The notes: a model not told the origin generated them from the letters alone. Positions 2,512-54,630 are shown, counted from the first letter of the stretch. The stretch is DNA of 64,000 nucleotides from an uncultured Planctomycetia bacterium (GCA_964409365.1 CAYPCX010000004.1:21015-85014); one strand, 5' to 3'. Program-made: numbers and translations.

Positions 2512-2628
2512 GGGGGCGTGAAGGCGCCGCGCACCTTGCCAAAACAGTTTTTACATGATAATATTGGGGCGACTTTCAACGGCCCCCGATCGTTTCTAAA
2601 AAGTCCATATCAAAAGAAAGGAATCACA

Positions 2629-3669
2629 ATGAGAATAGGAATTATGGCCGCCTGGAACACCAACAGCGGGGTGGCCATGCATGCCGAACCCGTGGGGAAG
2701 GCCCTTATCGAGATGGGCCATAAAGTGACGGTGTTCACCTTCCACAAGAACGACTATCACGGGGAGTGGATAACAGCGAAAGATGAAAAATTCGTGAAAA
2801 GGTGTTTCGGCACAAGGACCGGCACGAACGCGCTCGATCCGCGCCCTTTCATGGAACATAAGTACGATATATTGGTGATAGAGGATATAGGCATGTTGCC
2901 GGTCGATAAGCTTAACAATATAATGTCGGTGGTCAAGAAAAAGGCGAAAGTGATACACGTGGTCCACGAGAACAAGATGTGCGATCACTCCTGGTTCTAT
3001 AAAGTAAACTTCGACCGCGTGGTCTATTTCGATCACAGGCAGGATTTCCTTAAAAAGGTTTACTCCGACGCGGTCTATATACCTTTCCCGTGCTATAAGC
3101 TGAGAAAGGGCAACAAAAAGACCGCCAGGAAAAGGCTCAACCTTCCCCTGGACAAGAAAATAATTTATTCTTTCGGACTGAGGGGATACCACTCGTATTA
3201 CCGGGACCTGCCTCCGAAACTTAAAAAAAAGGCGATCCTTTTACATGTCATTCCCAGGGGATACCAGATGCTCGAATCGCTCACACCGGAACCCTGGCGG
3301 ATCATAAGAACAGTGGGTTCCCTTTCTACGCGGGAGTTTGACGATTATCTTTTCGCTTCGGACGCCGCCATTTTTCACAAGTTCCAAAGCCGTTTTCACG
3401 CTGTGCTGTCATCCACCGTCTACCAGTCTCTCGGCACGGGGTGCCCTCTCTTCGTGCCGCAACAGTCGGATTTCTTCCACAATTTCAAGAACGAAGTGGT
3501 ACATTACAGGGATATAACCGCCCTGAACAAAAAGCTGAGCGATTACCTGGGGAGCACGCAAAAAAGGGATCGCCTTTACAAGGAGGCGGAGAAGTTCGTC
3601 ATAGCCCATTCCCCGAGGGCTATCGCCTGGGAGTTCACGAGGTTGTTCGAAGAGCTTTTAGGGCAGTAA
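2629..3669 (+). CDS. Putative GT-B fold glycosyltransferase (GT4-like)
   Basis: RBS aaagga before ATG 2629; N-terminal MRIGIMAAWNTNSGVAMH and C-terminal AS.AAIF...YQSLGTGCPLFVP resemble GT4 architecture; weak. Confidence 0.4.
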   Translation: MRIGIMAAWNTNSGVAMHAEPVGKALIEMGHKVTVFTFHKNDYHGEWITAKDEKFVKRCFGTRTGTNALDPRPFMEHKYDILVIEDIGMLPVDKLNNIMSVVKKKAKVIHVVHENKMCDHSWFYKVNFDRVVYFDHRQDFLKKVYSDAVYIPFPCYKLRKGNKKTARKRLNLPLDKKIIYSFGLRGYHSYYRDLPPKLKKKAILLHVIPRGYQMLESLTPEPWRIIRTVGSLSTREFDDYLFASDAAIFHKFQSRFHAVLSSTVYQSLGTGCPLFVPQQSDFFHNFKNEVVHYRDITALNKKLSDYLGSTQKRDRLYKEAEKFVIAHSPRAIAWEFTRLFEELLGQ

Positions 3670-3691
3670 GGGCGCAAGGTCAGCAAAAGAC

Positions 3692-4711
3692 ATGAAGATC
3701 CTCATCACCGGAGGGGCCGGGTTCATCGGGTGTAATGTCGGCAAGTTCTACCTCGAGAGGGGGGACGAGGTCATCATTCTGGACAATCTTTCCAGGAAAG
3801 GAGCTCCGTCCAATCTCGAATGGTTGAGATCCCTGGGAGACGTTCGGTTCATCAAGCAGGATATCCGTGATTTTGATGGGTTGAGGAACGCCGTGAAGGA
3901 ATGCGGCGAGGTCGACATCCTTTTCCACCTGGCCGCGCAGGTAGCGGTGACCACGTCCGTTGTAGAGCCGCGCGAAGATTTTGAAATAAACGCCCTTGGC
4001 ACGTTCAATCTACTTGAATCCGTCAGACAGAACGGCATGGACCCGGTCATCATATTCGCTTCGACTAACAAAGTCTACGGGGAAATGACGGACCTTGTCG
4101 TGGTGGAAGATGAAGGAAAATACCGCTATGCGGATATGCCTGAAGGGATACCCGAATCCAGGCAGCTCGATTTCCATTCGCCGTACGGATGCTCTAAGGG
4201 GTGCGCCGATCAGTATGCCGTGGATTATGCCAGGATATACGGCTTGAGGACCGTTTGCATGCGGCAATCATGCATTTACGGACCGAGGCAGTTCGGCGTG
4301 GAAGACCAGGGTTGGGTCGCCTGGTTCATTATAGCCACTGTGCTGGGGCATGCGCTGACCATTTACGGCGACGGAAAGCAGGTAAGGGATATACTCCATG
4401 TGCAGGACCTTGTGGAGCTTTTTCATCTCGTGTACGAGAACATAGACAGGGTCAAAGGCATGGCTTTCAACGTGGGCGGCGGAGCCGCGAACCAGATGTC
4501 GCTCCTGGAGCTGGTGGACTTTCTTGGGGAATGGTCCGGTGCAAGGTTGAACCCCGCGTTCGATGACTGGAGGCCCGGTGACCAGAAGATATATGTGAGT
4601 GACATCAACAGGGTTAAGGAATATCTCGGGTGGGAGCCCCGGATAGGAAAAGAGGAGGGCGTCCGGGCGCTATGGGACTGGGTAAAAGCAAACAGGACAT
4701 TATTTAAGTAA
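3692..4711 (+). CDS. NAD-dependent epimerase/dehydratase (SDR; CDP-paratose 2-epimerase / UDP-glucose 4-epimerase family)
   Basis: TGGAGFIG Rossmann motif, YGCSK (YxxxK) catalytic motif. Confidence 0.8.
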   Translation: MKILITGGAGFIGCNVGKFYLERGDEVIILDNLSRKGAPSNLEWLRSLGDVRFIKQDIRDFDGLRNAVKECGEVDILFHLAAQVAVTTSVVEPREDFEINALGTFNLLESVRQNGMDPVIIFASTNKVYGEMTDLVVVEDEGKYRYADMPEGIPESRQLDFHSPYGCSKGCADQYAVDYARIYGLRTVCMRQSCIYGPRQFGVEDQGWVAWFIIATVLGHALTIYGDGKQVRDILHVQDLVELFHLVYENIDRVKGMAFNVGGGAANQMSLLELVDFLGEWSGARLNPAFDDWRPGDQKIYVSDINRVKEYLGWEPRIGKEEGVRALWDWVKANRTLFK

Positions 4712-11514: not shown

Positions 11515-11730
11515 ATACGTAACCAGTTCCCAGTAACCAGTTCCCAGTAACCAGTAACCAGTAACCAGTAACAAGGAAAAAGGAAAAAGGAAAAAGTATC
11601 AAGTGTTGAGTTGTGAGTTGTTAGTCATGAGTTGTACGACTCAATACTAAGAACTAAAAGCTAACAACTAATATCTTCCAGGCATCTACGTTCTTCTGTC
11701 CTCTGTCTTCTGACCTCTGTTTTCTGACAC
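11515..11730. repeat. Composite heptad-array element: (CCAGTAA/CCAGTTC)n-(AGGAAAA)3-120-bp core (IR-L 11596..11715)-(NNCTGNN)5
   Basis: 7-nt periodicity throughout; core is the reverse complement of 18411..18530 (about 94% identity by eye). Confidence 0.85.
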
Positions 11731-14244: not shown

Positions 14245-14272
14245 TTGACAAACCCATTCCAATATGTATAAT
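14245..14272 (+). promoter_or_regulatory. sigma70-like promoter TTGACA-16-TATAAT (TG-extended) for rnf operon
   Basis: consensus hexamers read in sequence, about 40 nt before rnfC ATG. Confidence 0.55.
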
Positions 14273-18410: not shown

Positions 18411-18572
18411 GGTCAGAAGACAGAGGACAGAAGGACGTAGATGTCTGGAGGATATTAGTTGTTAGCTTTTAGTTCTTAGTTTTTAGTCGTACAACTCATG
18501 ACTAACAACTTACAACTCAACACTTGATACTGGTAACTGGTAACTGGTAACTGGTAACTGGTAACTGGTAAC
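18411..18572. repeat. IR-R core (18411..18530, reverse complement of 11596..11715) followed by (CTGGTAA)x6
   Basis: manual reverse-complement comparison; few mismatches. Confidence 0.85.
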
Positions 18573-18591
18573 AGAACACACAATATGAACC

Positions 18592-19401
18592 ATGGATAAT
18601 CTGATGATAACGGCGATATTGAGCATGGCGGGACTGGCGATAGCGTTCGCGGCGGTCCTTGCGTTCGCCAACACGAAATTAAGGGTAGAGGAAGACCCGA
18701 GGGTGGACGTCATCAACCATCTTCTACCAGGGATCAATTGCGGCGCGTGCGGGTACCTCAGCTGCCACGACCTTGCGGAGCACGTGGTAAGGGAGGGGGA
18801 GGATCCCGCGAAATGCCGTGTAGTGGACGAGGAGACCAGGGAAAAACTTCTTGAGCTGACGGGCAGAGAGGGCGAAACGACTTATCCCTACATACCGCTT
18901 GTGCGGTGCGCGGCCGAATGGGAGCACAAGAAGAAAGAAGGAGTGGAGTATAAAGGCATCAAAACGTGCGCGGCGGCTAACCTCGCCTTCGGCGGGGGCA
19001 TGGACTGTGAATACGGCTGCATGGGGTTCGGCGACTGTGCCGAAGTATGTCCTTTCGACGCGCTCCATATGGAAAATGGCCTTCCCCGGCTCGACCAGGA
19101 GAAATGCACCGGTTGCGGAAAATGCGTCGAGGCATGCCCGCGCAACATCATAGTCCTTCAGGAGAAAAGGTTCGAGAAATTGTTTTACGTCGCTTGCAGC
19201 ACGCATGACGGGGCCTTAAGGGTCAGAGAGATCTGCAAGGTCGGCTGTATAGCCTGCGGGATATGCGAGAAACTTTCCCAGGAAGGGTTTTTCAAGGTAA
19301 CGGACAACCTCTCAAGGGCGGATTACTCCAAACAGGCCGACCCCGAAAAGGTAAGGCCCATAGCCGCCAAATGTCCGACGAAGGTGATAAAGGAAATTTA
19401 G
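18592..19401 (+). CDS. rnfB: Rnf complex subunit B (polyferredoxin)
   Basis: N-terminal TM; CGACGYLSC cluster; CTGCGKCVEACP and additional 4Fe-4S motifs. Confidence 0.85.
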   Translation: MDNLMITAILSMAGLAIAFAAVLAFANTKLRVEEDPRVDVINHLLPGINCGACGYLSCHDLAEHVVREGEDPAKCRVVDEETREKLLELTGREGETTYPYIPLVRCAAEWEHKKKEGVEYKGIKTCAAANLAFGGGMDCEYGCMGFGDCAEVCPFDALHMENGLPRLDQEKCTGCGKCVEACPRNIIVLQEKRFEKLFYVACSTHDGALRVREICKVGCIACGICEKLSQEGFFKVTDNLSRADYSKQADPEKVRPIAAKCPTKVIKEI

Positions 19402-19437
19402 GAAACAGGTGGCAGGAAACAGGTAACAGGGAAAACA

Positions 19438-21601
<2,164 letters not shown>

Positions 21602-21602
<1 letters not shown>

Positions 21603-22105
21603 TGAACATACGCCTTTTCGATGAAAAGTTCCGGGAGAATAAAACCCGGTATGTCGCCCAGGCCGTGTTGGGAAGCATGGCGGTAGGCGCGGCGCTTTTC
21701 TGGTTCGATATTGTCCGTAACCCCGTTGTGATAGCTTCTTTCGGCGCGAGCGGTTTTATCGCGTTCACCGAACCGCGGCAGAAATTCTCCGGCCCGCGGT
21801 ATCTCATAGGAGGGTACATAATAGGCATGGTCGTGGGGGCATCGGCCCATTACCTGACGGTCTTTCCCGTTCACCATTACATGACGCTCAAACTGATCCA
21901 TATTGCCGCCGGTGTCCTGGCGGTGGGATTGGCGATGTTCCTGATGTCGATAACGAACACGGAACATGCCCCAGCTTCCAGCATCGCCCTGGGGCTTGTG
22001 ATAAACGACTGGGATCATATCATCATAGTGAAGATCCTGGTGGGCATAATCATTATTTCCATGTCGCAGAGAGCGCTCAGGCGCTGGATGATCGATCTTG
22101 TCTAA
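21602..22105 (+). CDS. HPP-family-like membrane protein
   Basis: 4 TM; EHAPASSIALG resembles HPP motif; weak. Confidence 0.4.
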
Positions 22106-23046
22106 AGGAATTTTCTTGCCCGCCTGGGGTCTTTCAGGCCTTCGGTAGCGCCTCTGCCGGTGCAGGAGAGGGAGGATAAGGCAGAAGCGTATCGCAGATT
22201 TTCCTTCATTTCTTCCCAGAAAACGTCTTTTCCCGCGGAACAGTACCTGTGAATAAGGCCGGCGGTGAAACTGTCCCCGGCCCCGATCGTGTCCACGACA
22301 CGTACTCTGAAAGCGCTCTGGCGGAGTTTCTTTTTTCCGTCCCAGTAGAAAGATCCCTTTTCGCCCAATGTGACGATAAGTCCGCCTTTAAGATATTGTT
22401 CTATTCTTTTGATGGCGCCGTCCAGGCTTTTAGCCCCGGTAACACAGACCGCGTCTGTCTCACTGAGTTTTAAAAGGTCCACGAAAGGCAGGATCTTTTT
22501 TATCCTGCTCCTGGCGTTTCTCTTATCGGGTATTTTGGGAGCGCGCCAGTTAGGGTCATAAGTGACGAATACGTCTTCTTCTTTGGCGAGTTTCAGGAGG
22601 TCCCGGATAAGAGGGAAGAAGCGGTCGCTGTAGGAGAAAAAGGATCCCGTGTGCAGCACCGCCGTATCCCTGAAAAGGGCCTTGAGTTTTGTTTTGCCCG
22701 GTTTTTTATAAGGAGCGTCATATTCATAGAACTGGTATGTGGAGTTGCCTTTTTTGTCTACATGGGCGAAAGCAAGAGGGGCGTGTACTCTTTTATCCCT
22801 TATTATATGGCTTGTTTCTACACCTTGTTTGCTGAGTATTTCCACAAGGGCTGAGCTCATGGAGCCCACACCCAAACGTGATATCAGGACCGAAGGCAGC
22901 CCGAGGTGGGCAAGGATGATGGCGGTGTTGGTGGCCGATCCCCCTGCGTGGGCTTCAAGAACGAGATCGCCGGTCTTTTCATTCTTCTTAACTATAAGGT
23001 CAAAAAGCGATTCCCCGCAGCATATTATATGTTTCTTCTTTTTCAT
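22102..23046 (-). CDS. PfkB-family carbohydrate kinase (ribokinase/fructokinase-like)
   Basis: N-terminal GG motif region; DTIGAGDSF ATP-binding signature. Confidence 0.8.
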   Translation of the reverse strand: MKKKKHIICCGESLFDLIVKKNEKTGDLVLEAHAGGSATNTAIILAHLGLPSVLISRLGVGSMSSALVEILSKQGVETSHIIRDKRVHAPLAFAHVDKKGNSTYQFYEYDAPYKKPGKTKLKALFRDTAVLHTGSFFSYSDRFFPLIRDLLKLAKEEDVFVTYDPNWRAPKIPDKRNARSRIKKILPFVDLLKLSETDAVCVTGAKSLDGAIKRIEQYLKGGLIVTLGEKGSFYWDGKKKLRQSAFRVRVVDTIGAGDSFTAGLIHRYCSAGKDVFWEEMKENLRYASALSSLSCTGRGATEGLKDPRRARKFL

Positions 23047-23249
23047 GTCTGAACAATATTACCACGTCACCCCTGGCCTGACAAGTCCTATCCCGGATGG
23101 GAACCATTCTAAAACACCACCCGGATGAGGTCAGGCTGAAGAGGGGGACAAGGCAAGGGCTATTAGCTAATAAACCATTGTTAATAAATCACTTGTGTCA
23201 AAATCACAATAATTATTAAAGAATTAAGGCCATAAAAGCTGGATTTTTA

Positions 23250-23279
23250 TTGACATAACTAACTATTTTATGTTATAAT
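23250..23279 (+). promoter_or_regulatory. sigma70-like promoter TTGACA-18-TATAAT in AT-rich region upstream of giant ORF
   Basis: ttgacataactaactattttatgttataat read in sequence. Confidence 0.5.
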
Positions 23280-23344
23280 GCCGCTACTTAAATTTATTAA
23301 ATTAACAACTATGTCCAATATGACTGAAGTTTAGCGGCTAATAT

Positions 23345-26300
23345 ATGAATAATTACTTTAACATACATAGATTGTGGTTCAAAACAGTTGCGACAGGCGT
23401 AGTATGCCTGTTCCTTCTGAATAATTTCTCCTTCGCGCTGGAACCGACCACGGGTCAAAGATCCTGTCATACCCTTTCTCCGCAGTCACGATTCCCATTC
23501 GTGATCAAAGATAGAGTAAATGAAACGGAACTCACGCAGAGGCTCCAGAATGACGCGGGGCTGATATACGTGAGCCTGCTGATAGGAAAGGTCCTGGCTG
23601 CCAACGGTAGCGTGATCAGCGACAGAGGCTTAAGAACGCTGATCGAAAGACACATTCTGCATATAGAACCTGTAAGTTTTGATTGGGAAAACCTCAGGAA
23701 AGAAGGGAAGACCTTTTGTCTTCCTTATACCGAAAAGGGCGGCAACCGGACAAGGATCCTTCGTTATTATTTACCGGAGGATAAACCTGAAGAGGCAATA
23801 GGGAAACGGTCCATACCTCTCGGAACGGGAAATGCCAGGGTTATTTTAGAGGATACCCGGGTAGACGTATCGGAATCTGTGTTTATTTTTAACGTTGGCA
23901 CCGATGATATAAAGGGAGGAACAGGAAGAGAACTGTACGAGACAAATAGAATAGCTCAGGGAATTTATGATAGAGCGGCAGAGGCCCTGGGGTGCGATGT
24001 TTCCATGTTGTTTTTAGAGGAAAAGAACAGGGGTATAACCGAACGGTGGGCTGTCGGCAACATTTTGTATGGGGTAGCCCTGTATGCGGCATTTTCCGGC
24101 AGAATGGAGACGAATGATGCTCCGATCGCGCTGGCCGGTAACAGTATGGGTGAGATAGGAGCCCTTATCGTGAGCGGCGCCGTGTCTTTGGAGGACGGTG
24201 TCAGGCTTGCCCGGTTTTGTGGACATTTTTTTGAGACGGTCGTAGATAAGGTCGATTATGGCGTCGTCATACTGGAAGGCATTGAGAGTGATGCTATCAA
24301 GGGTTTTCTTGATCCCGGAAAGGTCGAGCTGTTCCAGGATGTTTCTCCCAGCAGCATTTCCCTGGCTGTAAGCAGGGATGTCGACCATGAAGAACTGGTC
24401 AACCGGTTAAAAGAGGCCGGAGCGAGAAGAGCGCAATATTTCGAAAAGCCTTTGGTCAAAGGGTCTCATGTAAGCTGGTACAGTCGTTATGGGCAGGGCC
24501 TTGTAGATCAGATCAGGGAAATGAAGATAAGCGATCCGGAGATCCCCGTTATCTCGCCCGCGACAGGGGAGATCCTCACGACCGCTGACCAGGTAAGGGA
24601 AGATATCCAGACGCAGTTTTTTAGGCCGATCGCATGGCGCGGTGTGGTAGATAAGGCCGTGGAAAGCGGCGCAAGATCGATGCTGGCCTTCGGGCCGGGA
24701 TGGCGGATCATAAAAAGAACAGAATCGATGGGTTCCGGTATTGAGATTATCCCGGCGACGGATCTTGCGGAGCTTGAATCCTTGAAACATAAGGTCAGGG
24801 GGTTCGGTTCCGAGAATTTAAGGCCGGATATCGGTACTGTGGTGAAAGGGCAGGATGGGCATACTTATGAAATCAAAGAGATAATAACGACCGGGGGAAC
24901 AGCCATTATTTTCGGGGCCAGGGATATGGAAACGAGCAAGAACGTCGCGATAAAATTCCTGGATTTTTCTATTGTGCCGGAACCGGAAGAATTTATAAAG
25001 CTGTTCAAACGGGAAGTGGATGTTTTGAAAAAAGGGTTCACGTTCGCGCCTGGTTTTTATGACTGGAATATCGTCGATGATCCCAAAGGTTATGGTTGGA
25101 TAGCTATGGAAAAGCTCGAAGGCGTTGAATTGTGGAAATGGGCAGCGGATAAATATCAGGATCAGACGATAGGTGTGCAGGAGAAGGTGAGAGATATAGT
25201 AGAAATAGTGCAGAAAGTCCTCAACCATATGAGTGCCTTATATGAAAACGGCATTCAGTATCGCGAAGTGAACCGGAAAAATATTATCGTTACTCCGGAG
25301 AGCGAACCGAAGCTAGTAGATTTCGTCGGCGCGTGCGTTCCCGGGCATGACCCAATACCATTGAATAAACTTCCGTGCACCCCGAACTATTTACCGCCTG
25401 ATAGACACCGTGAAATAAAACTCAAAGGTCCGGGGGTCCTTGACGATGTGACAACTCCGCAGTACGACGTTTTTCAGATGGGCGTGTTGCTGTTCCACCT
25501 GGCTCGCATGACAGGCCCACCTGATGACGGTTCTTATTGGGATGTCTCATTCACATACGAGACATATACCCGGGAAAAGATCGAAGATATGTTGCCGCCT
25601 GCTTGGAAAAGGTTTGCCGGTGTTATTTTTAAAGCCACCGCTCGGGAGCTTGAAGACCGCTACGAGAGCGCGGAAGAAATGAAACGCGCCATTGAGGAGC
25701 AGGAAGATGCACCAGGTTCCGAAGGATTTGGTGATGGGACTCATGGCCCGGATTTCGGAAAATCAAACCGAAAAAAGTTCTGTTTAGTCGCAATGGGCGC
25801 GGTATCTCCCTGGGTGGTGCTGATTCTATTAGCTGGCATGGTCATATGTGATATGGTCTACGGCGTAATAAACCACGAAAGGTTCTACCAGGTGATCCTC
25901 AACAAACACCCGAAGCTTACCCTCGCGCTTAAAAACCTCTTCTACCGCCAGTACTTGCCTGATCTTATCTCAAAACCCCTCCAGAGGTGGGCTGTTTCAG
26001 CGCTGGGCCGTTTGATGGACAAGATAAAAGAATTCACCGATAAACTCCCGGGAATAAGATTTAGGGATCCAGTTGTTGTCATGGAGGCCGAACTTGCGGG
26101 GACGGGAGACAAAGTAATCAGTGACATCGGCTTCCAGGTGCCGATCGTATTCGAGATGTCCAAGTCCGGCAGAAAGGGCAGAGGAAGGGGATCCAATAAA
26201 AGAAGGAAACAGATGTCCAAACGGCCCCCGGCCGCAGAGGAGCCCAAACCATACGATGACCTGATCTCCTGCGCGGGATATGCTTTAAATAACCTGGTGA

Positions 26301-29300
26301 TCGTCAGGGAACAACCTGAGATGCTACAAGCGGCAAAAGATTTTTACGCTTATTTATCTGAAGCAGGGAAAGACATCTTGGACCAGTTGAATATAGATGA
26401 GAACAAACTACAGGATATAAGATCGATTTTGGAAGGAAGGGGTTTGTCTCCGGACATGGTCCGGTGTTTGAGGCAGGATGCGGAGATCATAACCGGCAGA
26501 ACGAAGGGTAAAGGTACGGTCAAAGCCTCCCCGAAAAGATTTTCGGACGATTATGAAATAGTCGAGGTCGCCGATGTAAAAACACTTGTTCCCGTTATTA
26601 TGTATGTTCAGGAAATGAAAGCGCGTGAAGTCACGGATGCGGAACTCTCATTATACGCGGTGACTGATGATGATTTGAGAAAAGGAGTTCGGATGCCGGA
26701 GAAATTACCGGCCGCAAAAGAGATGCTTTACAGGAAAGCGTTGAGAAACCTGAAAGATGTAAATTGGTACAAAAGGGGCTGGCAGGAAGTTCAGGGTTTA
26801 TCCCCGGCGAATAAACGTTTTCTGAAAGAAAAAGCGGAAGAGATATGCGGGGATAAACTTGAAAAGTGCTGGGGTTTTGTAGAAGGCATTTCAAGCGAGC
26901 AGGATTATGCCGAGAAACTAATGAGAACTGAGATTGCCACCGTGAACAGTATGCGTGATTTCACGGAGTTTATAATATTGTTGGCGTGTATTTACGGAGG
27001 CGAGCAGACGCATGATGAGATGCGCGTGGCCTTGGAAAATATAGAAAAAGAGCATGAAAATGCCGCCCTTCTCGGTGATGCGCCTGTTCTCGACAGACTT
27101 GACGAAGATGTATCGGTAAATGTAGGGACTTTCGCAAAGATCGCTTTTTCCTTTCTTGAACATGAAAAGGGCTTGGAAAGAGACAGTAAAGAGTACAGGG
27201 CGATACTGGATGCGGTACGGCGTATAAATTCCTCCGCTAAAGTGCAATGCCGGCCGGAATCGAGCGAGAGATGGATAAGGGACTTTTTGGCATGGATACA
27301 CGCGGGATTCAGGTATTATCTGATGCCGAAAGGCGGCGAGATATACGACGATCGGCATGGGCCGGGTGTGTTGCGTGAAGGCGGGGCCATTGTTCCGGGA
27401 AGGGCGGTAACACCCTTTACACTGGTATCCGGTGCCGTAAAAACTTCGGACGCCGAGCTTTTCTCCGCTGAGGCGGGGAAACTGGGAATATTTACTTATG
27501 TCCTTCCTCCCGGGTTTGTGACATGCCGGATATCTTCTACCGGAAGGAATATAATCCTTAAAACGGGGCACATTGATGTAGTCATGGGTGTTGTTCCGCC
27601 GGAGTTTACAAGCGATGGCAGAGCCAAACTCCTGATGGATCCGAGTTATCACAACCTGGTGAAAGACAACCCCGAATTTCTGCGTCTTTTGGAAGAACAG
27701 GGTTCTAATATGGATGTGGTCCTAATACATCCGGAAGAAACTTACCTTAACCTGGCCAATTTCAGCTCGCTCCTGGATGAAAATGGGCAGGTCAAACTGC
27801 TTTTTAATCACGACAAAGGCCTTACTTTGCCATATTTGAATTTGAAAACGGGTGTTCTTTTCCAGACGGATATGGAAATAACGGGAATGGCGGTTCTTAG
27901 GGGCCTGGTAAGGTGTATGACAAATATGCTTCCCGGGAGCTACGTAAAGGGAGGCGCCTCTACCAGCATCGTGATCCGTGATAGCGGTATGCCACCCGGT
28001 GTGGCGACAGGCCTTCATGCGTTAAGTAAGGACCCGGAACTGAAAAGGGTGTTGCAGGAGCTTTGGATAAATAGATTGACGATAACTGGGACTAAATTTC
28101 GTCCTATGTCCCTGGTCCATTATGATTCGTCAACCCGGAGGATTCTCGTCCAGTTGGGGAATGATCTTGTAAATGATCCCAGCGCCGCCTGCGATTATGT
28201 TATTAATTACTTAGAAGCAACCCGGCAGCGTCTGTGCCAGGATATGGGTATATCTGTCCAGGGGTTTGGTGATACCCGACAGATGGGTGGATCGGCCCCG
28301 GCTCCGGCCGGTATGTTCCCGTGGATGTGGCGCGTCTATGATCCGATAAAAAGAGGTCTTGAGAAGAGGGACTGGCCGGCGCGCCGGATCGCCGGTCTGA
28401 TAGGCGGCCTGGAAGAGCTGGGGATCGCGGGCCTGGTCATGAACGGGGCAGCTTTTGCGTTAAGTTATTTTTGCGGGATGCCTTTTATAACAGCTCTTCT
28501 GGTGACTTCAGCGGTCGCGGTGCCGTTTTTTCCGGCAGGACATATTAGAGGACGGTATTATATTCAAGGAGGGGGATTTGCCCCCGCTTTGCCTTCTAAT
28601 TTCTGGAAGGATATGGGCGTCCTTACAGTTCTTGGACTTACGACAAGATCCCTGCAGCTATTGCCTGTCGCAATGGTATGCGTGTTTAACCTTAATCCTG
28701 CCTTTACGCTGGTCGGCATCCCGCTTGCCGTTATCGCGCATGCTTATTATAACCATTCCGTAGCGCCCGAACGCAACCGCCCTCTCGGCATGCCATGGAA
28801 AGGTAAACCCCACAAGTGGACGCCGGAACGTATATCTGAAGAGCTTCGCATGATGTATTTTGACGGAGTGGATTCAAGAGGTGTGAAGTGCACACGTGAA
28901 GACCTTCGGATCGAAAAAATAAGAGACCATTATCAGGGTCTTGCTGTTGCGGTCCCGAGGACTTGGAAGGAAATGCTGAAGGAACAGGGAGTATCAGAGA
29001 ACAGCCGCCTTTATATTTACATGTCCGGGGAAGGCAGAAATCCCAGGGAAGGTATTAATAAGGCAGGATGGGAGTATTTCTGGGCGACGATCGGAGTGAA
29101 TTACGAAAGAGATATTGAAAAGAAACCGGGTGCTGCAGAAGGGGCTTATATACCGAACGCGACCGATAGCGGCATAGAACACCGTGATTTGAAAAAGTTC
29201 GTTCCGGAAGAAGATGAGCTGTTCGGTATTGTCAGGGAAATGTTGGGCGGGGAAGATCTCACTGAACACGAGATAGCTGATATCATCCTCAACGCGCCCG

Positions 29301-32038
29301 ATGATGTTATTTCAGATGATCAGAGATTCATTTTAAGGGAATATTGCGGACTTAACAAGAGCGGCGTAGCAACGATGGTAAAAGATATCGCTGAGGAAAT
29401 GGGCATCTCCACGACCGCCGTGATCGATTCGAGGAAGAGAGCTTGTGAGAAGATCTATAACTGGCTTAAAGCCCAGCAGAGAACGGAAGGGGCGGAAAGG
29501 CAGGATCTGATCTTGCGGGACGAACCGGATCTTTATTACAGATTACAGGAAATGGGCATTAATACTGTCATCGAGCTTTCGGATCTTACGGAGAACGAGT
29601 TCGCGGAACAGCCGGGAATAAATTCCTGGCACGTTTCTGTTGCTAAGCAAAAGCTTGTTGAAGCTGGCCTGGGAGGATTCCGTTCGCCGTCGTTAGGGAG
29701 GAGCGCCCCTATAGAAAACTTGAGTCTGGCTGTGGAAAACCCGGAAAGGGTTCATGCGCTTTTGAGGAAAAAAGGCGTAAACACCGTTGCGGTGCTTTTG
29801 AAGATCGGGGTAGGGGGGCTTGCGGATAGGCTGGGAAAAGAGGCGTCACGACATATCATTGCCATAAGAAGGGCGGTAGCGCCGCATGGTTGGGAATTAA
29901 GGTTCCCCGCTGCAGTGAGTAACAACGATCCCATAGAATGTCTGCCTTTTCCCGCTTGGCACGAGTACGATACTTGTCAAAGGCTCAGGGAGGTCAATAT
30001 CAAGACTATCGGCCAGCTTCGGGACAAGACCCGAATAGAGCTAAAAAGGGTCGAGGGTATAGGGCAGGCGCGGCTGGAGATCATCACGAGAACTCTTGCT
30101 TATTATGACAAAGAATTAAGGGTTGACAGCGCGTTGAAGGAAGAGGATTCGATAAGAAAGCTTTGGATCTCTGCTTTTAAATCAGAAAATGTTTATAGCG
30201 CCCTTGAAGGGGCTGGTATTATTACTATCGGCCAGCTTTTAGATAAGACAAGAAAGGATCTCTTGCGGATCCCCAAGATCGGCGAACGTGCCGTTGCCGC
30301 TATTGAGGAAAAACTGGCTGTCTACGGCTGGAGATTACGTCAGGAGAGCACGATCGATGGTGTTCCTGCCGATATTCCGGCCGGAAGTATCGAAAACGTG
30401 CTCAGCTATTTTTGTGATCAAGACATAACCGATCCTGGGAAAGCCCTTACGCTGGAGCAGGCAGCAGATCGTTTGGGGCTTTCACCCTGGACAATAGAGC
30501 CGGACATAAGGGCGTTGAGCCTGCACCTGGATCTTTTGGAGGTCGTTCCTCCGGGTGGGACGGGTAAAAAGAAGAGGTATTACGTCCCGGAAAGCGTGAA
30601 GAAGAAACTCGATAGGATACTCCCGGTCCTATCCCAATTCCGCGGTGAGAATCTCCGCCCGAAAGTCGCACTTCTCGATGAAGTCTACGAAAAAGAAATA
30701 TTCCCGATTCTTGCCCCGGAAAAAAGTATTAAGCTTGAGATGATAAGACCGTCACCGGAATTGGAAAACAGAATTGAAAAATTCAGAGGAGTCGTGAAAA
30801 AACTTACCGATGACATACAAGGATCTTATGACGAAGAGCGGGGAACTTATTCATCAAAAGAATACGAAGCCGTGATAGCTGCCTTCGTGAATAGCCATAA
30901 GCCGTCCAGCATAGGCTACTACCATCCTTCTCCTTCATGGGCTATTCCTATTTTTCTCGAACATTTAGGGATAAACGAAAGTGATATAATGCTGGAAGCG
31001 GGAAGCGGAAAAGCTATTGTATCTTTTGAGGCCGCTTGTTTGTTCGGCGCTCGCGCGACGGCGGTGGAATATAGCGAAGCCTTCCACGTGTACGCCGGAC
31101 TGATACAAAAGGGGTTAATAAAAGAGGGTGTGCTGGAAGACAAACATGTGACTTTGTTCAATAAAGATTTTCTGGAGATGGATTTCTCTGAATACTCGCT
31201 GATCTATTACCAGTCACAAGGGACGCGCAAGAAGGAAGAACTGCTTAAGAAGATGTTGCAGATCAAACCGGGTGGCAGGATATTGATCTACGCGGGATAT
31301 GAACCCGAGATAGAGGACGAACTCAATGCGAATCCGGAGTTCGAAGCGAAGAAACTACAGATCGAAGGGCACCCCGGTGCTTTAGAGATGAGGGTCTATA
31401 CCAGGGTCGCCCGAGCGGATGAGGATGAGAAGCCGGTGGTCGATATTGCCAGCGAGGACAAGATCGCTCAGGATTTCATAGATGCGGTTATTCTGACGAT
31501 CGACGCGCTGGGAAGAAGATCCGGCAGGCAGAACAAGAAGATGATGATCGGTATTGACACAAGCTGGATACCGGAAGAGCAGCGGCATTCATCCGCGATG
31601 GTGCAGACCCTACTGGCGGCGATAAAAGATGCGCTTAGGGAGATAGGGCGGGAGGACATCGTTTTACTGGATGATAGTGACCCGGAGGGGTTAGCAGAGC
31701 AGCTCCGGACGGAAAGCGGGAAGACGGGAGTACCGCTTTCAAATATCGCGATAGTAAGTGCCGAAAAGACGTTCGAAGGAACGGACATTTTCGAGGAATT
31801 CAAGGGCGAGAGCAGGGAACAGGGCGCGTTTTTTGCGAAGGTGCCGCTGCCGGAAAAAGGACTTTCAAAGGATCTTGACATCAATATCGTCAAGATGTTG
31901 ACGATATTGATGAAGCATATATCCGACCCGGACAGCCCCCGCGAATTCTATTTGCCGATACCAGACGCGAAAGAGGTAGGGATAGACAAGCTCGGGGATG
32001 TTCATAAAGCCCGCGCCGAGGCGTTGATCAGGGCGTAA
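23345..32038 (+). CDS. Giant multidomain membrane protein (2,897 aa): N-terminal signal/anchor, FabD-like acyltransferase, degenerate protein-kinase-like domain, several TM blocks, sigma-70 region-4-like HTH (x2), four RNAP alpha-CTD-like HhH repeats, class I SAM methyltransferase
   Basis: single uninterrupted ORF; domain motifs identified by eye (see findings). Confidence 0.8.
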   Translation: MNNYFNIHRLWFKTVATGVVCLFLLNNFSFALEPTTGQRSCHTLSPQSRFPFVIKDRVNETELTQRLQNDAGLIYVSLLIGKVLAANGSVISDRGLRTLIERHILHIEPVSFDWENLRKEGKTFCLPYTEKGGNRTRILRYYLPEDKPEEAIGKRSIPLGTGNARVILEDTRVDVSESVFIFNVGTDDIKGGTGRELYETNRIAQGIYDRAAEALGCDVSMLFLEEKNRGITERWAVGNILYGVALYAAFSGRMETNDAPIALAGNSMGEIGALIVSGAVSLEDGVRLARFCGHFFETVVDKVDYGVVILEGIESDAIKGFLDPGKVELFQDVSPSSISLAVSRDVDHEELVNRLKEAGARRAQYFEKPLVKGSHVSWYSRYGQGLVDQIREMKISDPEIPVISPATGEILTTADQVREDIQTQFFRPIAWRGVVDKAVESGARSMLAFGPGWRIIKRTESMGSGIEIIPATDLAELESLKHKVRGFGSENLRPDIGTVVKGQDGHTYEIKEIITTGGTAIIFGARDMETSKNVAIKFLDFSIVPEPEEFIKLFKREVDVLKKGFTFAPGFYDWNIVDDPKGYGWIAMEKLEGVELWKWAADKYQDQTIGVQEKVRDIVEIVQKVLNHMSALYENGIQYREVNRKNIIVTPESEPKLVDFVGACVPGHDPIPLNKLPCTPNYLPPDRHREIKLKGPGVLDDVTTPQYDVFQMGVLLFHLARMTGPPDDGSYWDVSFTYETYTREKIEDMLPPAWKRFAGVIFKATARELEDRYESAEEMKRAIEEQEDAPGSEGFGDGTHGPDFGKSNRKKFCLVAMGAVSPWVVLILLAGMVICDMVYGVINHERFYQVILNKHPKLTLALKNLFYRQYLPDLISKPLQRWAVSALGRLMDKIKEFTDKLPGIRFRDPVVVMEAELAGTGDKVISDIGFQVPIVFEMSKSGRKGRGRGSNKRRKQMSKRPPAAEEPKPYDDLISCAGYALNNLVIVREQPEMLQAAKDFYAYLSEAGKDILDQLNIDENKLQDIRSILEGRGLSPDMVRCLRQDAEIITGRTKGKGTVKASPKRFSDDYEIVEVADVKTLVPVIMYVQEMKAREVTDAELSLYAVTDDDLRKGVRMPEKLPAAKEMLYRKALRNLKDVNWYKRGWQEVQGLSPANKRFLKEKAEEICGDKLEKCWGFVEGISSEQDYAEKLMRTEIATVNSMRDFTEFIILLACIYGGEQTHDEMRVALENIEKEHENAALLGDAPVLDRLDEDVSVNVGTFAKIAFSFLEHEKGLERDSKEYRAILDAVRRINSSAKVQCRPESSERWIRDFLAWIHAGFRYYLMPKGGEIYDDRHGPGVLREGGAIVPGRAVTPFTLVSGAVKTSDAELFSAEAGKLGIFTYVLPPGFVTCRISSTGRNIILKTGHIDVVMGVVPPEFTSDGRAKLLMDPSYHNLVKDNPEFLRLLEEQGSNMDVVLIHPEETYLNLANFSSLLDENGQVKLLFNHDKGLTLPYLNLKTGVLFQTDMEITGMAVLRGLVRCMTNMLPGSYVKGGASTSIVIRDSGMPPGVATGLHALSKDPELKRVLQELWINRLTITGTKFRPMSLVHYDSSTRRILVQLGNDLVNDPSAACDYVINYLEATRQRLCQDMGISVQGFGDTRQMGGSAPAPAGMFPWMWRVYDPIKRGLEKRDWPARRIAGLIGGLEELGIAGLVMNGAAFALSYFCGMPFITALLVTSAVAVPFFPAGHIRGRYYIQGGGFAPALPSNFWKDMGVLTVLGLTTRSLQLLPVAMVCVFNLNPAFTLVGIPLAVIAHAYYNHSVAPERNRPLGMPWKGKPHKWTPERISEELRMMYFDGVDSRGVKCTREDLRIEKIRDHYQGLAVAVPRTWKEMLKEQGVSENSRLYIYMSGEGRNPREGINKAGWEYFWATIGVNYERDIEKKPGAAEGAYIPNATDSGIEHRDLKKFVPEEDELFGIVREMLGGEDLTEHEIADIILNAPDDVISDDQRFILREYCGLNKSGVATMVKDIAEEMGISTTAVIDSRKRACEKIYNWLKAQQRTEGAERQDLILRDEPDLYYRLQEMGINTVIELSDLTENEFAEQPGINSWHVSVAKQKLVEAGLGGFRSPSLGRSAPIENLSLAVENPERVHALLRKKGVNTVAVLLKIGVGGLADRLGKEASRHIIAIRRAVAPHGWELRFPAAVSNNDPIECLPFPAWHEYDTCQRLREVNIKTIGQLRDKTRIELKRVEGIGQARLEIITRTLAYYDKELRVDSALKEEDSIRKLWISAFKSENVYSALEGAGIITIGQLLDKTRKDLLRIPKIGERAVAAIEEKLAVYGWRLRQESTIDGVPADIPAGSIENVLSYFCDQDITDPGKALTLEQAADRLGLSPWTIEPDIRALSLHLDLLEVVPPGGTGKKKRYYVPESVKKKLDRILPVLSQFRGENLRPKVALLDEVYEKEIFPILAPEKSIKLEMIRPSPELENRIEKFRGVVKKLTDDIQGSYDEERGTYSSKEYEAVIAAFVNSHKPSSIGYYHPSPSWAIPIFLEHLGINESDIMLEAGSGKAIVSFEAACLFGARATAVEYSEAFHVYAGLIQKGLIKEGVLEDKHVTLFNKDFLEMDFSEYSLIYYQSQGTRKKEELLKKMLQIKPGGRILIYAGYEPEIEDELNANPEFEAKKLQIEGHPGALEMRVYTRVARADEDEKPVVDIASEDKIAQDFIDAVILTIDALGRRSGRQNKKMMIGIDTSWIPEEQRHSSAMVQTLLAAIKDALREIGREDIVLLDDSDPEGLAEQLRTESGKTGVPLSNIAIVSAEKTFEGTDIFEEFKGESREQGAFFAKVPLPEKGLSKDLDINIVKMLTILMKHISDPDSPREFYLPIPDAKEVGIDKLGDVHKARAEALIRA

Positions 32039-32040
32039 TA

Positions 32041-32077
32041 CAGGTCTCAGGTCACAGGTTTCAGGTAGCAGGTCACA
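32041..32077. repeat. (CAGGTNN)x5 heptad array just after giant ORF stop
   Basis: caggtct caggtca caggttt caggtag caggtca. Confidence 0.8.
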
Positions 32078-32142
32078 CAGCATAAAACCCTTGCGCATGA
32101 GTTCTATATTTGCTATAATTTGACACTCTGAACGAGATTTGA

Positions 32143-32217
32143 CGCGGGGTGGAGCAGAGGTAGCTCGTGAGGCTCATAACCTCAAGGTCGGCGGTTCGAT
32201 TCCGCCCCCCGCAACCA
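32143..32217 (+). tRNA. tRNA-Met (CAT), initiator-like (C1:A72 mismatch, close to E. coli tRNA-fMet)
   Basis: CGCGGGGTGGAGCAG...GCTCATAACC...GGTTCGATTCC...CCCCCGCAACCA. Confidence 0.85.
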
Positions 32218-32221
32218 ATAT

Positions 32222-32253
32222 AAAAACCCGGCTGATTTTTAGCCGGGTTTTTC
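32222..32253 (+). terminator. Rho-independent terminator (cccggct-N7-agccggg + T5), same stem as terminator at 11055
   Basis: read in sequence. Confidence 0.7.
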
Positions 32254-32262
32254 TTACCCCGG

Positions 32263-32300
32263 TACCTGAAACCCGACACCCGACACCTGATACCTAACCC
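32263..32300. repeat. (ACCYGAN)x5 heptad array upstream of purB promoter
   Basis: acctgaa acccgac acccgac acctgat acctaac. Confidence 0.8.
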
Positions 32301-32301
32301 A

Positions 32302-32330
32302 TTGACACCGCTAATTATATATGCTATAAG
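32302..32330 (+). promoter_or_regulatory. sigma70-like promoter TTGACA-17-TATAAG for purB
   Basis: read in sequence; RBS gggaggg before ATG 32383. Confidence 0.5.
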
Positions 32331-32382: not shown

Positions 32383-33675
32383 ATGATAGAAAGATATACG
32401 CGCCCCGGAATGGGCAGGATCTGGGCGGACGAGAACAGGTTCCGCAAGATGCTGGACATAGAGATACTGGCCTGCGAAGCGTTCGCGAAACAGGGGCTTA
32501 TACCCAAAGACGCCCTGAAGAACATCAAGGAAAAAGCCGATTTCGATGTCGATCGCATCAAGGAGATAGAAGCCAGGACCCACCACGACGTCGTTGCCTT
32601 CATAAAGAGCATTTCGGAATATGTCGGTGAAGACGCCAAGTATATACATTTCGGCCTCACCTCGAGCGATGTGTTGGACACGGCCCTTTCGGTGCAGATG
32701 GTCGAAGCGATGGACCTTCTTCTGGAAGGGGCAAAGGCCCTCCGGGAAGCGCTGAAAGACAAAGCGCACAGGTACAAGAAGACCCCCATGATGGGCCGTT
32801 CGCACGGCGTGCATGCCGAGCCCATATCTTTCGGCCTGAAGATGGCGCTTTTTTGTAAAGAGATGGACCGTAATATCCACAGGTTGGAGGACGCCAGGGA
32901 AACGATAGCGGCGGGGAAGATATCGGGTTCGGTGGGGACTTTCGCTAACGTAGACCCCGTTGTGGAAGAATATGTATGCAAGCGGCTCGGGCTTAAACCG
33001 GCGGGTGTATCCAGCCAGGTCCTTCAGAGGGACAGGCATGCACAGTACCTGAACGCCATCGCCATCGTGGGAGCGACCCTGGAAAAAATAGCCCTTGAAG
33101 TGCGCGGTCTCCAGAAGACCGAGATCGGCGAAGTGCAGGAGTTTTTCGCCTCGGGCCAGACGGGTTCTTCGAGCATGCCGCACAAGAAGAATCCCATCAT
33201 CTGCGAGCGCATAACGGGACTTGCGAGGGTCTTGAGAGGTAACGCCATGGCGGCCATAGAGAACGTCGCCCTGTGGCACGAGCGGGACATATCGCATTCT
33301 TCGGTCGAACGCATAATAATACCGGATTCCGCTATCCTTCTTGATTATATGCTGGATAAAGCTACGAAACTGGTGGAAAAGCTCGTCGTGAACGAGGACA
33401 GGATGCTGGAGAACATGGGCGCGACAAAAGGCCTTGTGTATTCACAGCACGTGCTTCTCGAGCTTATAAAAAAAGGGGCGACACGCGTCGACGCTTATGA
33501 CATCGTCCAGGAGTTGTCGCTGAAGAGCCACGAACACGGTAGAGAGTTCAAGGACCTTCTTCTTGAGAGCGAGAAAATAAAAAAGTACCTTTCGGAAAAA
33601 GAGATCGAGGATTGCTTCAGCCTTGATTATCATCTCCGGCATATTGACAGCATCTTCAAGAAGATCGGTCTATAG
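32383..33675 (+). CDS. purB: Adenylosuccinate lyase
   Basis: MIERYTRPGMGRIW N-terminus; GSSSMPHKKNP fumarate-lyase signature. Confidence 0.95.
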   Translation: MIERYTRPGMGRIWADENRFRKMLDIEILACEAFAKQGLIPKDALKNIKEKADFDVDRIKEIEARTHHDVVAFIKSISEYVGEDAKYIHFGLTSSDVLDTALSVQMVEAMDLLLEGAKALREALKDKAHRYKKTPMMGRSHGVHAEPISFGLKMALFCKEMDRNIHRLEDARETIAAGKISGSVGTFANVDPVVEEYVCKRLGLKPAGVSSQVLQRDRHAQYLNAIAIVGATLEKIALEVRGLQKTEIGEVQEFFASGQTGSSSMPHKKNPIICERITGLARVLRGNAMAAIENVALWHERDISHSSVERIIIPDSAILLDYMLDKATKLVEKLVVNEDRMLENMGATKGLVYSQHVLLELIKKGATRVDAYDIVQELSLKSHEHGREFKDLLLESEKIKKYLSEKEIEDCFSLDYHLRHIDSIFKKIGL

Positions 33676-37482: not shown

Positions 37483-37545
37483 GCAGAAGGCAGAGGACAG
37501 ATTGTTCATTTCTTTTATCTGTTTTCTGACTTCTGATTTCTGAAA
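37483..37545. repeat. Forward (CAGANGG)x3 and reverse-complement (TCTGNNN)x4 heptad arrays forming imperfect long hairpin between rpiB and glyA
   Basis: read in sequence. Confidence 0.7.
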
Positions 37546-38831: not shown

Positions 38832-38910
38832 AGAAGGATAAAGGATAAGGGAAAAAGGGTGAAGGGTAAAGGAAAAAGGATAAAGGAACAAAGAAAAAGG
38901 GAAAGAATAA
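38832..38910. repeat. (AAGGNNA)x11 heptad array spanning glyA-stop to dCMP-deaminase N-terminus
   Basis: aaggata aaggata agggaaa aagggtg aagggta aaggaaa ... Confidence 0.8.
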
Positions 38911-39353
38911 ACAGGCCGAGCTGGGATGATTATTTCATGAATATAGCCCGGCTTGTCGCGACACGATCGACCTGCCTGCGCAGACAGGTAGGCGCTGTTG
39001 TCGTCAAGGATAAGCAGATATTGGCCACCGGGTACAACGGCGCTCCTTCGGGGCTGACCCACTGCGACCAGGTCGGGTGCCTCAGGGAAGAGCTCGGGAT
39101 CCCTTCGGGCCAGCGGCACGAGCTTTGCCGCGCCTTGCACGCGGAGCAGAACGCCTTTTTGCAGGCGGCCAGGCACGGCGCCAGTCTTGCCGGCGGTACG
39201 CTGTACATAACGACGCAGCCCTGCAGTATCTGCGCGAAGATGCTGATAAATGTCGGCATAAAAAAGATCGTTATCGAGGGGGACTACCCCGATGACTTCG
39301 CCCTTCAATTCCTCAAGGAGTCCAAAATAGAAACGGTGGTGCTTGGGTCATGA
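38859..39353 (+). CDS. Deoxycytidylate (dCMP) deaminase, ComEB-type; start uncertain (GTG 38859 inside heptad array)
   Basis: RPSWDDYFM...RSTC N-terminus, HAEQNA and PCSICA zinc-binding motifs. Confidence 0.8.
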
Positions 39354-52139: not shown

Positions 52140-52306
52140 GCAAATTGCGCTGTGCGCAATTTGCAGAGTATTCGAGATTCGAAAGTCGACAGTCGGAGAG
52201 AATAGAGAATCAAGAATACGGTCGAATTTCGATTATCGATTTCTCGGGAAACAATATCAAAGAACACAACAGAGCTTTTCGGCAGGTTCGATTCTAGAGA
52301 GGCATT

Positions 52307-54510: not shown

Positions 54511-54630
54511 CAGAAGACAGAGGACAGAGAACAGAAGACAGATAACAGAAAACAGATCATAGTATCTTTTAACATCAAACACCTAATATCTGACTTCTGA
54601 ATTCTGACATCTGACGTCTGATTTCTGAAA
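54511..54630. repeat. (CAGANNA)x6 and inverted (TCTGANN)x6 heptad arrays between prs and rplY
   Basis: read in sequence; arrays are mutual reverse complements. Confidence 0.85.

Follow-up and report, generated by a model that had tools for sequence, protein, structure and literature searches.

We conclude that the segment from 23047 to 32330 of the 64,000-nucleotide (nt) stretch analysed here (hereafter the window; CAYPCX010000004.1:21015-85014 in GCA_964409365.1) is most probably a gene slot that is ancestral in a clade of Candidatus Omnitrophota and has its own promoter, and not an integrated mobile element. The slot is bordered by the gene of a PfkB-family sugar kinase (pfkB) and by purB, and in the window it is occupied by a giant open reading frame (ORF) that is followed by an initiator tRNA-Met (tRNA-fMet). 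A first-pass annotation had regarded this arrangement as a horizontally acquired, tRNA-adjacent island or, at least, as a separately regulated unit. The latter view is supported by a consensus promoter that is conserved at the orthologous position in relatives; the former did not hold up, for the reasons given below. The landmarks of the locus are as follows.

22102-23046, minus strand: PfkB-family sugar kinase with NCBIfam and Pfam PfkB matches; divergent left neighbour, at the same position in seven relatives
23345-32038, plus strand: giant ORF, uninterrupted, encoding a membrane-anchored mosaic protein of 2897 amino acids (aa)
32143-32217, plus strand: initiator tRNA-Met (CAT), found by ARAGORN and Rfam
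32383-33675, plus strand: purB (TIGR00928, E = 1e-159), which heads a purB-purM-purD-purE... cluster and forms the conserved right border

The best matches of purB and of the enolase gene (eno) were metagenome-assembled genomes of Candidatus Omnitrophota, with identities of 71-78% for purB and up to 85% for enolase. Contigs of relatives were fetched through their enolase homologues, and seven of them (L084, L088, L090, L172, L173, L174 and L177; enolase 79-85% identical) were compared with the window. A second set, L001-L003 together with L092, came from purB-anchored scans of genomes and metagenomes. All seven enolase-anchored relatives keep the order rnf-purN-eno-divIC-(HPP)-pfkB, with pfkB on the minus strand, and then carry a plus-strand gene, divergent from pfkB, that encodes the same N-terminal domain (N-domain) as the window ORF. 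The slot genes of the relatives are listed here.

L084-86: 2113 aa, then a second copy of at least 4223 aa
L088/89: 3780 aa
L090/91: 3732 aa
L172, 'Ca. Makaraimicrobium thalassicum': 735 aa
L173: 4712 aa
L174: 3704 aa
L177: at least 993 aa, ending with the contig

The N-domain, of about 170 residues, is common to all slot genes and is 31-49% identical to that of the window protein; a profile built from six members finds other members at E = 1e-35 to 1e-81. A C-terminal module of about 225 residues (C-module) is common to the slot genes wherever the 3' end is known. The middles between these ends are unrelated, and beyond the N-domain only a few scattered modules of the window protein match the relatives. 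The shortest slot gene has 735 aa and the longest at least 4712 aa, and the variable middle comprises about 300 to more than 4000 residues. In L172 the whole interval can be followed, from pfkB on the minus strand through the 735-aa family gene and an initiator tRNA-Met, inverted relative to the window, to purB-purM-purD-purE-LMWPc-rpiB-glyA; the synteny around purB is kept both in this genome and in L081, a further contig described below. Thus, one positionally orthologous gene is traceable across eight genomes, and its promoter and N-domain are conserved in all eight. One further candidate, a 2841-aa ORF directly 5' of purB in L006, was rejected as a family member, as it had no match by BLASTP or with the N-domain profile.

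The promoter of the giant gene and the DNA around it comprise the following features.

23047-23160, no strand assigned: GC-normal half of the divergent intergenic region (GC 0.553), with weak minus-strand promoter-like sites; not conserved in relatives
23161-23344, plus strand: AT-rich leader (GC 0.25), consisting of an A/T tract 5' of the -35 element, the promoter and a 5' untranslated region (UTR) of about 58-65 nt
23250-23279, plus strand: predicted sigma-70-type promoter with extended -10 element, namely TTGACA (23250-23255), the 18-nt spacer TAACTAACTnTTT and TGtTATAAT (TATAAT at 23274-23279)

The consensus TTGACA-18-TATAAT promoter that the first-pass annotation had pointed out is indeed present, matching at 12 of 12 hexamer positions and bearing in addition a TG extension at 23271-23272; the end of the -10 element lies 65 nt before the ATG. 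In six of the seven relatives the hexamers and the spacer are kept nearly base for base, and L088 keeps the spacer and the -10 element with a diverged -35 element. When the spacers between pfkB and the slot gene were aligned, 19 positions of the promoter were invariant across seven genomes, and an eighth genome, L177, has the identical motif; the consensus TTGAC(A/T)TAACTA(A/G)CTnTTT(T/G)(A/G)TGnTATA(A/C)T is common to L084, L090, L172, L173, L174 and L177. The leader sequence flanking the promoter does not align among the relatives. This pattern suggests that the conserved spacer TAACTAACTnTTT could be an additional binding site. In terms of strength, the promoter is strong and not exceptional. 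Perfect 12/12 sites occur twice in the 64 kb, where block shuffles that preserve composition predict 0.017; the second one (TTGACA-N16-TATAAT, 14245-14272) lies upstream of rnfC. Sites matching at 11 or more of 12 positions number seven, against 0.66 expected, and six of these are on the plus strand, where five are intergenic and just 5' of a gene; 11/12 sites are located ahead of the ORF at 4798, of purB and of the gene at 43413. Accordingly, near-consensus promoters are the usual operon start in this genome.

The leader was also examined for its composition. The claim that about 300 bp upstream of the ORF are AT-rich is correct for 23161-23344 (GC 0.25) and incorrect for 23047-23160 (GC 0.55), which probably holds the promoter and the 5' end of pfkB. 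As a whole, 23047-23344 has a GC content of 0.366, compared with 0.520 for the window and 0.445 for all its intergenic DNA, and the 184-nt stretch with the minimum GC in the window (23177-23360; 0.239, the next lowest being 0.359) lies nearly entirely inside the leader. The last 150 nt 5' of the start codon have a GC content of 0.28-0.33 in all six relatives examined, and the translation start region TAGCGGCT-AATATATGAATAA is common to the window and L088. The 5' UTR folds no better than shuffled sequence (z 0.08). Since both the AT-richness and the promoter are kept in relatives, the leader looks like conserved regulatory or otherwise functional DNA rather than the edge or scar of a foreign insert.

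Downstream of the giant gene, the heptad array, the initiator-like tRNA-Met and the hairpin terminator of the first-pass annotation were all recovered, and two further promoter-like sites can be read there.

32041-32074, plus strand: heptad array (CAGGTnn)x~5, found with Tandem Repeats Finder and by pattern search; left arm of an inverted pair
32091-32119, plus strand: putative tRNA promoter read from the sequence, TTGCGC, 17-nt spacer, TGcTATAAT
32222-32255, no strand assigned: predicted symmetrical intrinsic terminator hairpin with an A5 run, a 7-bp GC-rich stem and a T5 run
32258-32295, minus strand: right arm of the inverted heptad pair, found with Tandem Repeats Finder, by pattern search and as an inverted repeat
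32302-32330, plus strand: predicted purB operon promoter, TTGACA, 17-nt spacer, TGcTATAAG (11/12), kept upstream of purB in L001-L003 and L172

Based on these elements, transcription would start about 7 nt past 23279 and run through the 8.7-kb ORF. A scan found no terminator-like site between the stop codon of the giant ORF and the tRNA, the nearest being located after the tRNA; because of this, the transcript would probably read through into the tRNA-fMet cassette, which would also have a promoter of its own, and would then stop at the symmetrical hairpin 32222-32255. The purB operon would restart from its own promoter.

The codon usage of the giant ORF is where the locus departs from its surroundings. 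The impression that it is richer in A/T-ending codons than purB or glyA is borne out by the GC content at synonymous third codon positions (GC3s), which is 0.517 in the giant ORF compared with 0.667 in purB and 0.702 in glyA, as well as 0.558 in pfkB. This is the minimum of 53 genes (0.652 +/- 0.040 for the 52 others; z -3.4), and the divergence of synonymous codons from the pool is also the largest of the 53. The first-pass annotation had named conserved presence in all relatives, together with codon usage like that of the flanking genes, as what would speak against an island; the presence is conserved, but the codon usage is clearly distinguishable from that of the neighbours. The GC content at third positions (GC3) is low throughout the ORF save at its 3' end, where one change point was located.

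31193, plus strand: compositional change point in the ORF, after codon ~2616 (likelihood ratio, permutation p = 0.002)

GC3 is 0.522 upstream and 0.655 downstream of this point, and that of the C-module, 0.653, equals the genome norm. When the GC3 of the slot gene is compared with that of core genes, the difference is -0.13 in the window and -0.12 in L172, and lies between 0.00 and -0.04 in L173, L174, L084, L088 and L090. The codon usage of the slot gene matches its own genome best in each of the latter five; for the window ORF, its own genome is the worst fit (Kullback-Leibler divergence 0.104) and other genomes fit better (0.039-0.074). The GC3 deficit is lineage-specific and not a general property of the family. 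As for pfkB, it is on average 45.5% identical to six relatives, less than the pfkB of any other of the seven genomes compared, and the core genes of the window's genome are not outliers. Because of the GC3 step, the codon fit and the divergent, low-GC3 pfkB taken together, we consider that the block from pfkB to about nt 31193 may have a history different from that of the surrounding chromosome. Recombination with DNA of a related, lower-GC3 lineage may have rebuilt or replaced most of the window allele; this is the cause that we regard as the most likely one, with a confidence that stays just under the halfway mark. The compositional step within the ORF in any case offers a concrete hypothesis of recombinational replacement.

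The ORF itself was compared with other assemblies. An assembly obtained independently from a different run (L082, SRR14699969) is 100% identical over 18543-31348; these 12.8 kb span pfkB and the leader and take in 8.0 kb of the ORF. From 23256 through purB and beyond, a JGI contig (L081) also matches at 100%, except for one missing segment.

29411-29598, plus strand: 188-bp segment, absent in L081, where a frameshift results and the gene is called as 2037 + 768 aa; present in L082

No microhomology is visible at the junction of this gap, which reflects either variation in the population or an error of the assembly. From the agreement of L082 and L081 it follows that the intact ORF is real and that a disrupted variant, or a mis-assembly, also exists. 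The borders of the slot are recurrent assembly breakpoints (L083, L081, L001-L003 and L092). Two of these breaks fall inside the promoter, L083 ending at 23262 and L081 starting at 23256, and the likely cause is either an element of about 45 nt that is near-identical in co-occurring relatives or poor coverage of AT-rich DNA.

Four explanations of the locus were weighed against each other on this basis. Genomic islands, pathogenicity islands and integrative elements are known at tRNA genes, for example at selC or leuX in Enterobacteriaceae. The window gene resembles them in being near a tRNA, in a codon usage off the host norm, which is one hallmark of an island that it does bear, and in one extremely AT-rich border, and several assemblies break at the borders of the segment. 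On the other hand, a foreign 9-kb segment integrated next to tRNA-Met would be expected to look different in nearly every other respect: the giant gene sits 5' of the tRNA and not at its 3' end; the 23-nt tRNA 3' end has no second copy in the 64-kb window with up to three mismatches, so that an attachment-site (att) duplication is missing; no direct repeats flank the segment; and there is no integrase, recombinase or other mobility gene among the neighbours, nor any recombinase domain in the giant ORF according to domain searches. The neighbours are all housekeeping genes, with rnfCDGEAB, purN, eno, divIC, an HPP-family membrane protein and the minus-strand PfkB-family kinase on the left, and purB, purM, purD, purE, a low-molecular-weight phosphatase, rpiB, glyA, dCMP deaminase and nrdR on the right. 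No empty site was found in the close relatives, as a homologous gene with the same promoter is present at the same position in 7/7, the AT-rich leader is conserved and the linkage of tRNA-fMet to purB is conserved in relatives as well. A classical tRNA-linked island is therefore largely refuted by synteny, and we regard it as very unlikely; a horizontal component, if present, may be confined to the gene body in the form of an allelic replacement. An even smaller probability is given to an artefact of assembly or binning, in which the ORF would be a chimera of reads from several co-occurring Omnitrophota. The breaks of two assemblies at 23256-23262, in a promoter nearly exactly common to related species, and the assembly that lacks 188 bp would fit such a chimera, but the 100% identity of L082 over 12.8 kb and of L081 from the promoter past purB, as well as 2897 uninterrupted codons, contradict it.

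Vertical descent without any replacement is harder to set aside. Here, the low GC3 would reflect weak or relaxed synonymous selection and AT-biased mutation in a fast-evolving, weakly expressed gene and in pfkB. The intergenic GC content of 0.445 makes a mutation pressure towards AT probable, a uniformly low GC3 extends over 2600 codons, the gene can be dispensed with to the extent that one assembly has a frameshifted variant with the 188-bp deletion, and the slot genes of L084 and L090 also lie slightly under their core GC3. Moreover, pfkB and the N-domain of the window are closest to L174 and L172, as its core genes are, which fits vertical descent with accelerated change, and no donor of a replaced block was identified, none of the six relatives being unusually close in pfkB or the N-domain. 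What argues against this explanation is that five of seven lineages have a slot gene with about core GC3 and with the best codon fit to its own genome, so that length or family membership alone does not lower GC3, and that GC3 steps sharply for the last ~280 codons (p = 0.002), which is hard to explain by selection on expression level because such selection acts on the whole gene. Descent without replacement is the main alternative and one to be taken seriously, although we hold it to be somewhat less likely than not.

For the ancestral slot itself, several observations count on the negative side, in addition to the kinship of pfkB and the N-domain, which bears on the proposed recombination. 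The right junction, from slot gene to tRNA-fMet, is seen in L172 only, where the tRNA cassette is inverted. L001-L003, the closest relatives by purB, have the same tRNA-fMet, terminator and purB promoter 5' of purB, but their contigs end 20-190 nt upstream of the tRNA, so that these contigs, like L092, stop just upstream of the tRNA or purB; and in L084, L088, L090, L173, L174 and L177 the sequence covered stops before the 3' end. In L176, a more distant genome (enolase 76%), divIC and purB are separated by Band_7, a tRNA-Met and two polyamine-pathway genes, and both pfkB and the slot gene are missing from this interval. From this it follows that the slot goes back to the ancestor of a subclade, with a single gain or loss deeper in the tree. 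With these reservations, we retain the ancestral, separately promoted slot as the preferred reading. In terms of annotation, the locus should not be flagged as mobile or as a tRNA-linked island, but treated as core chromosome with a phylogenetically footprinted promoter. The genomic context is ordinary; of modest interest is the orthologous series of slot genes, in which the ends are fixed and the middle varies.

The product of the window gene belongs to a family of long membrane proteins of Omnitrophota. A Kyte-Doolittle scan, the only method used for this purpose, indicated hydrophobic segments at aa 14-32, 824-842 and ~1692-1790, and a cluster of hydrophobic helices is part of the variable middle. 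The modules of the protein are given below.

23345-23872, plus strand: N-terminal family domain, aa 1-176, with a signal-anchor-like helix, an HTLSPxSRF motif and a conserved region of ~130 aa
23915-24700, plus strand: FabD-like acyltransferase, aa 191-452 (TIGR00128 fabD, E = 3e-29, under the curated cut-off; weak Pfam Acyl_transf_1)
24863-25708, plus strand: Ser/Thr protein kinase, aa 507-788 (Pfam Pkinase, E = 5e-13; NF033483, E = 5e-19)
26528-28264, plus strand: module of ~570 aa, aa ~1062-1640, also present in stand-alone proteins and in other very long proteins
29522-30346, plus strand: RNA polymerase alpha-CTD-like helix-hairpin-helix repeats (PF03118, E = 2e-14, two stretches; rpoA models; about four by eye)
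30914-31360, plus strand: methyltransferase-like region, aa 2524-2672 (BLASTP to residues 1653-1799 of the first L084 slot protein, L084a; weak RrnaAD and mad2 matches)
31361-32035, plus strand: C-terminal family module, aa 2673-2897, with the motif (M/I)IGIDTxWxP

The alpha-CTD-like repeats are accompanied by an internal 219-nt repeat and preceded by a sigma-70 region-4-like helix-turn-helix (aa 1968-2039; TIGR02937). The slot genes of L084 and L172 end in sequences that are ~32% identical to the C-module, and a profile of this module also matches an ORF in L175 that overlaps the end of the protein P0002. The N-domain had no Pfam match, and the N-domain and C-module profiles found nothing in the PDB; a single-sequence AF2 model of the C-module had a predicted local distance difference test score (pLDDT) of 52, too low for a fold search. 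When residues 790-1989 were searched against 1.84 billion representatives with HMMER, individual modules were found and no full-length orthologue. Among these, the homologues of the ~570-aa module have 32-38% identity, with E values down to 3e-70, and they have no Pfam match. When the whole ORF was used in a word-based protein search, nothing came back but the organism itself, one Omnitrophota protein with the N-domain and noise from polyketide synthase acyltransferases; the N-terminal 175 aa gave nothing in this search, although P0002 matches them pairwise. A metagenome scan with the ORF found no relative. The PADLOC matches are of a generic kinase and methyltransferase type and do not point to a defence system. 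At the level of DNA, the 3' end of the ORF contains a perfect 15-nt inverted repeat with a 4-nt gap (31879-31912; CATCAATATCGTCAA / TTGACGATATTGATG).

In the architecture of the slot genes, the fixed N-domain and C-module enclose a lineage-specific string of enzyme-like and DNA-binding-like modules. The domains found in the slot genes of the relatives are HATPase_c, glycosyltransferase 1, methyltransferase, acetyltransferase or PEP-utilising domains. The length range from 735 to at least 4712 aa indicates that the slot gene evolves by gain, loss and exchange of modules between its fixed ends. It is conceivable, though we put this forward tentatively, that the pfkB/purB slot is an orthologous 'expandable gene' locus at which the promoter, the N-domain and the C-module anchor the recombinational insertion, deletion and exchange of modules. 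Such exchange could include DNA of other lineages, in line with the GC3 step and the outlying pfkB, and related genera would form a graded series of 735, 2113, 2897, ~3700 and at least 4712 aa, plus tandem copies. If true, this series would show how Omnitrophota build giant genes. Irrespective of this, the locus provides a tractable case for how long genes of Omnitrophota grow, shrink and exchange modules.

Family genes in tandem were observed twice. In L084 (12596-19930), a second copy of at least 4223 aa begins 103 nt past the first. In L175 (1-17120), the first of three consecutive ORFs has at least 2399 aa, the second is P0002 (2799 aa), and the third, of 501 aa, overlaps P0002 and carries the C-module; the second and third probably represent a single gene that has been split.

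Rhs- and CdiA-type polymorphic toxins are encoded by polymorphic loci with conserved ends and exchangeable segments. The slot gene is similar to these in having a conserved N-terminal part and promoter with a lineage-specific remainder, and a compositional step within one ORF that suggests recombinational replacement. It differs from them in that the middle is variable and the C-module conserved, and in that it lacks RHS/YD, PAAR and haemagglutinin repeats, a downstream immunity gene and orphan cassettes.

The long proteins of Omnitrophota are described in two preprints as mostly membrane-anchored, multi-enzyme sequence singletons (bioRxiv 10.64898/2026.06.07.730766; 10.1101/2023.11.21.568195). 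On the one hand, the window protein resembles these very long multi-enzyme proteins (West-Roberts et al. 2023; Nielsen & Lui 2026) in phylum, N-terminal anchor, transmembrane segments, mosaic of enzyme-like domains and singleton character, and kinase/ATPase, methyltransferase, glycosyltransferase and radical-SAM domains occur in the relatives. On the other hand, with 2897 aa it is far below the threshold of at least 10,000 aa used in the published catalogues; SecA_DEAD, C39 and dockerin domains were not detected in it; and its gene has housekeeping neighbours instead of type II secretion system/pilus or glycoside hydrolase genes. A description of the N-domain/C-module pair, the conserved promoter or the syntenic slot was not found in the available portions of West-Roberts et al. 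2023 and Nielsen & Lui 2026. Accordingly, the locus holds a fast-evolving mosaic gene of an already known Omnitrophota kind, with a compositional anomaly that is genuine in the window lineage.

The remaining observations concern the tRNA-fMet cassette and the repeats around it. An Rfam scan of the window returned four tRNAs and nothing else. The tRNA-Met is of the initiator type, to judge from its C1xA72 mismatch, its A11:U24 pair and the G:C pairs at two of three positions in the anticodon stem (29:41 being A:U); it is near-identical in L001-L003 and L172, with the same A:U variant at 29:41. The sequence TTGCTATAAT of the putative tRNA promoter also precedes the tRNA in L002 and, inverted, in L172. 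For the hairpin 32222-32252, the terminator scan lists the minus strand only; on the plus strand, the stem CCCGGCT/AGCCGGG is followed by TTTTTCTT, and the terminator thus looks bidirectional. An equivalent hairpin follows the tRNA in L001-L003 and L172, and in L172 it is located directly 3' of the slot gene. The left heptad arm is 78% complementary to 32258-32289 over arms of 32 nt, and the two are paired in the minimum free energy fold and in the centroid fold (z -4.9). The cassette of promoter, tRNA-fMet and terminator has the opposite orientation in L172 (15046-15200), and the initiator tRNAs near purB in L005 and L176 are likewise on the opposite strand, which suggests that the cassette between the heptad arms may have been inverted during evolution.

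Heptad arrays are not specific to the giant gene. Ten or more intergenic regions of the window contain them, with many unit sequences; the arrays are listed in two groups.

1405-1436, 11519-11728, 18414-18572, 19400-19430 and 32041-32074: heptad arrays in the window
32264-32295, 37524-37543, 38834-38911, 52197-52218 and 54510-54628: the rest of the heptad arrays in the window

Identity at a lag of seven is 0.347 in intergenic DNA against a background of ~0.26, with no such signal in coding DNA. Among the relatives, arrays are also present in L084 and L006 and are absent from L088, L090, L172, L173, L002 and L003. Intergenic heptanucleotide arrays have been described as short tandemly repeated repetitive (STRR) sequences of cyanobacteria and as TAACTGA repeats of Beggiatoaceae (PMC4679880), and heptamers are enriched in bacteria (PMC4692102). 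The window arrays are like these in their 7-nt units, short tandem arrangement, restriction to intergenic DNA and large number per genome, and differ in the many different unit sequences and in a patchy occurrence among related Omnitrophota.

Two relatives showed further structures next to tRNA genes. In L003, the region 3' of the tRNA-fMet (229-752) consists of three tandem units of ~199 nt, each starting with a copy of the tRNA 3' end and the terminator; the last two are 88% identical, and the first overlaps the tRNA 3' end and shares 64% identity with the reference copy. These units have the appearance of att-like scars or of a tandem duplication on the 3' side of the tRNA, and nothing similar is present in the window. 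In L090, a block with a GC content of 0.25-0.35 (644-4055) lies by a tRNA-Thr, where other relatives have a major facilitator superfamily gene. It encodes an extracytoplasmic function sigma factor, an anti-sigma factor, a helix-turn-helix protein and a tyrosine integrase, and represents a genuine tRNA-linked island as a contrast case.

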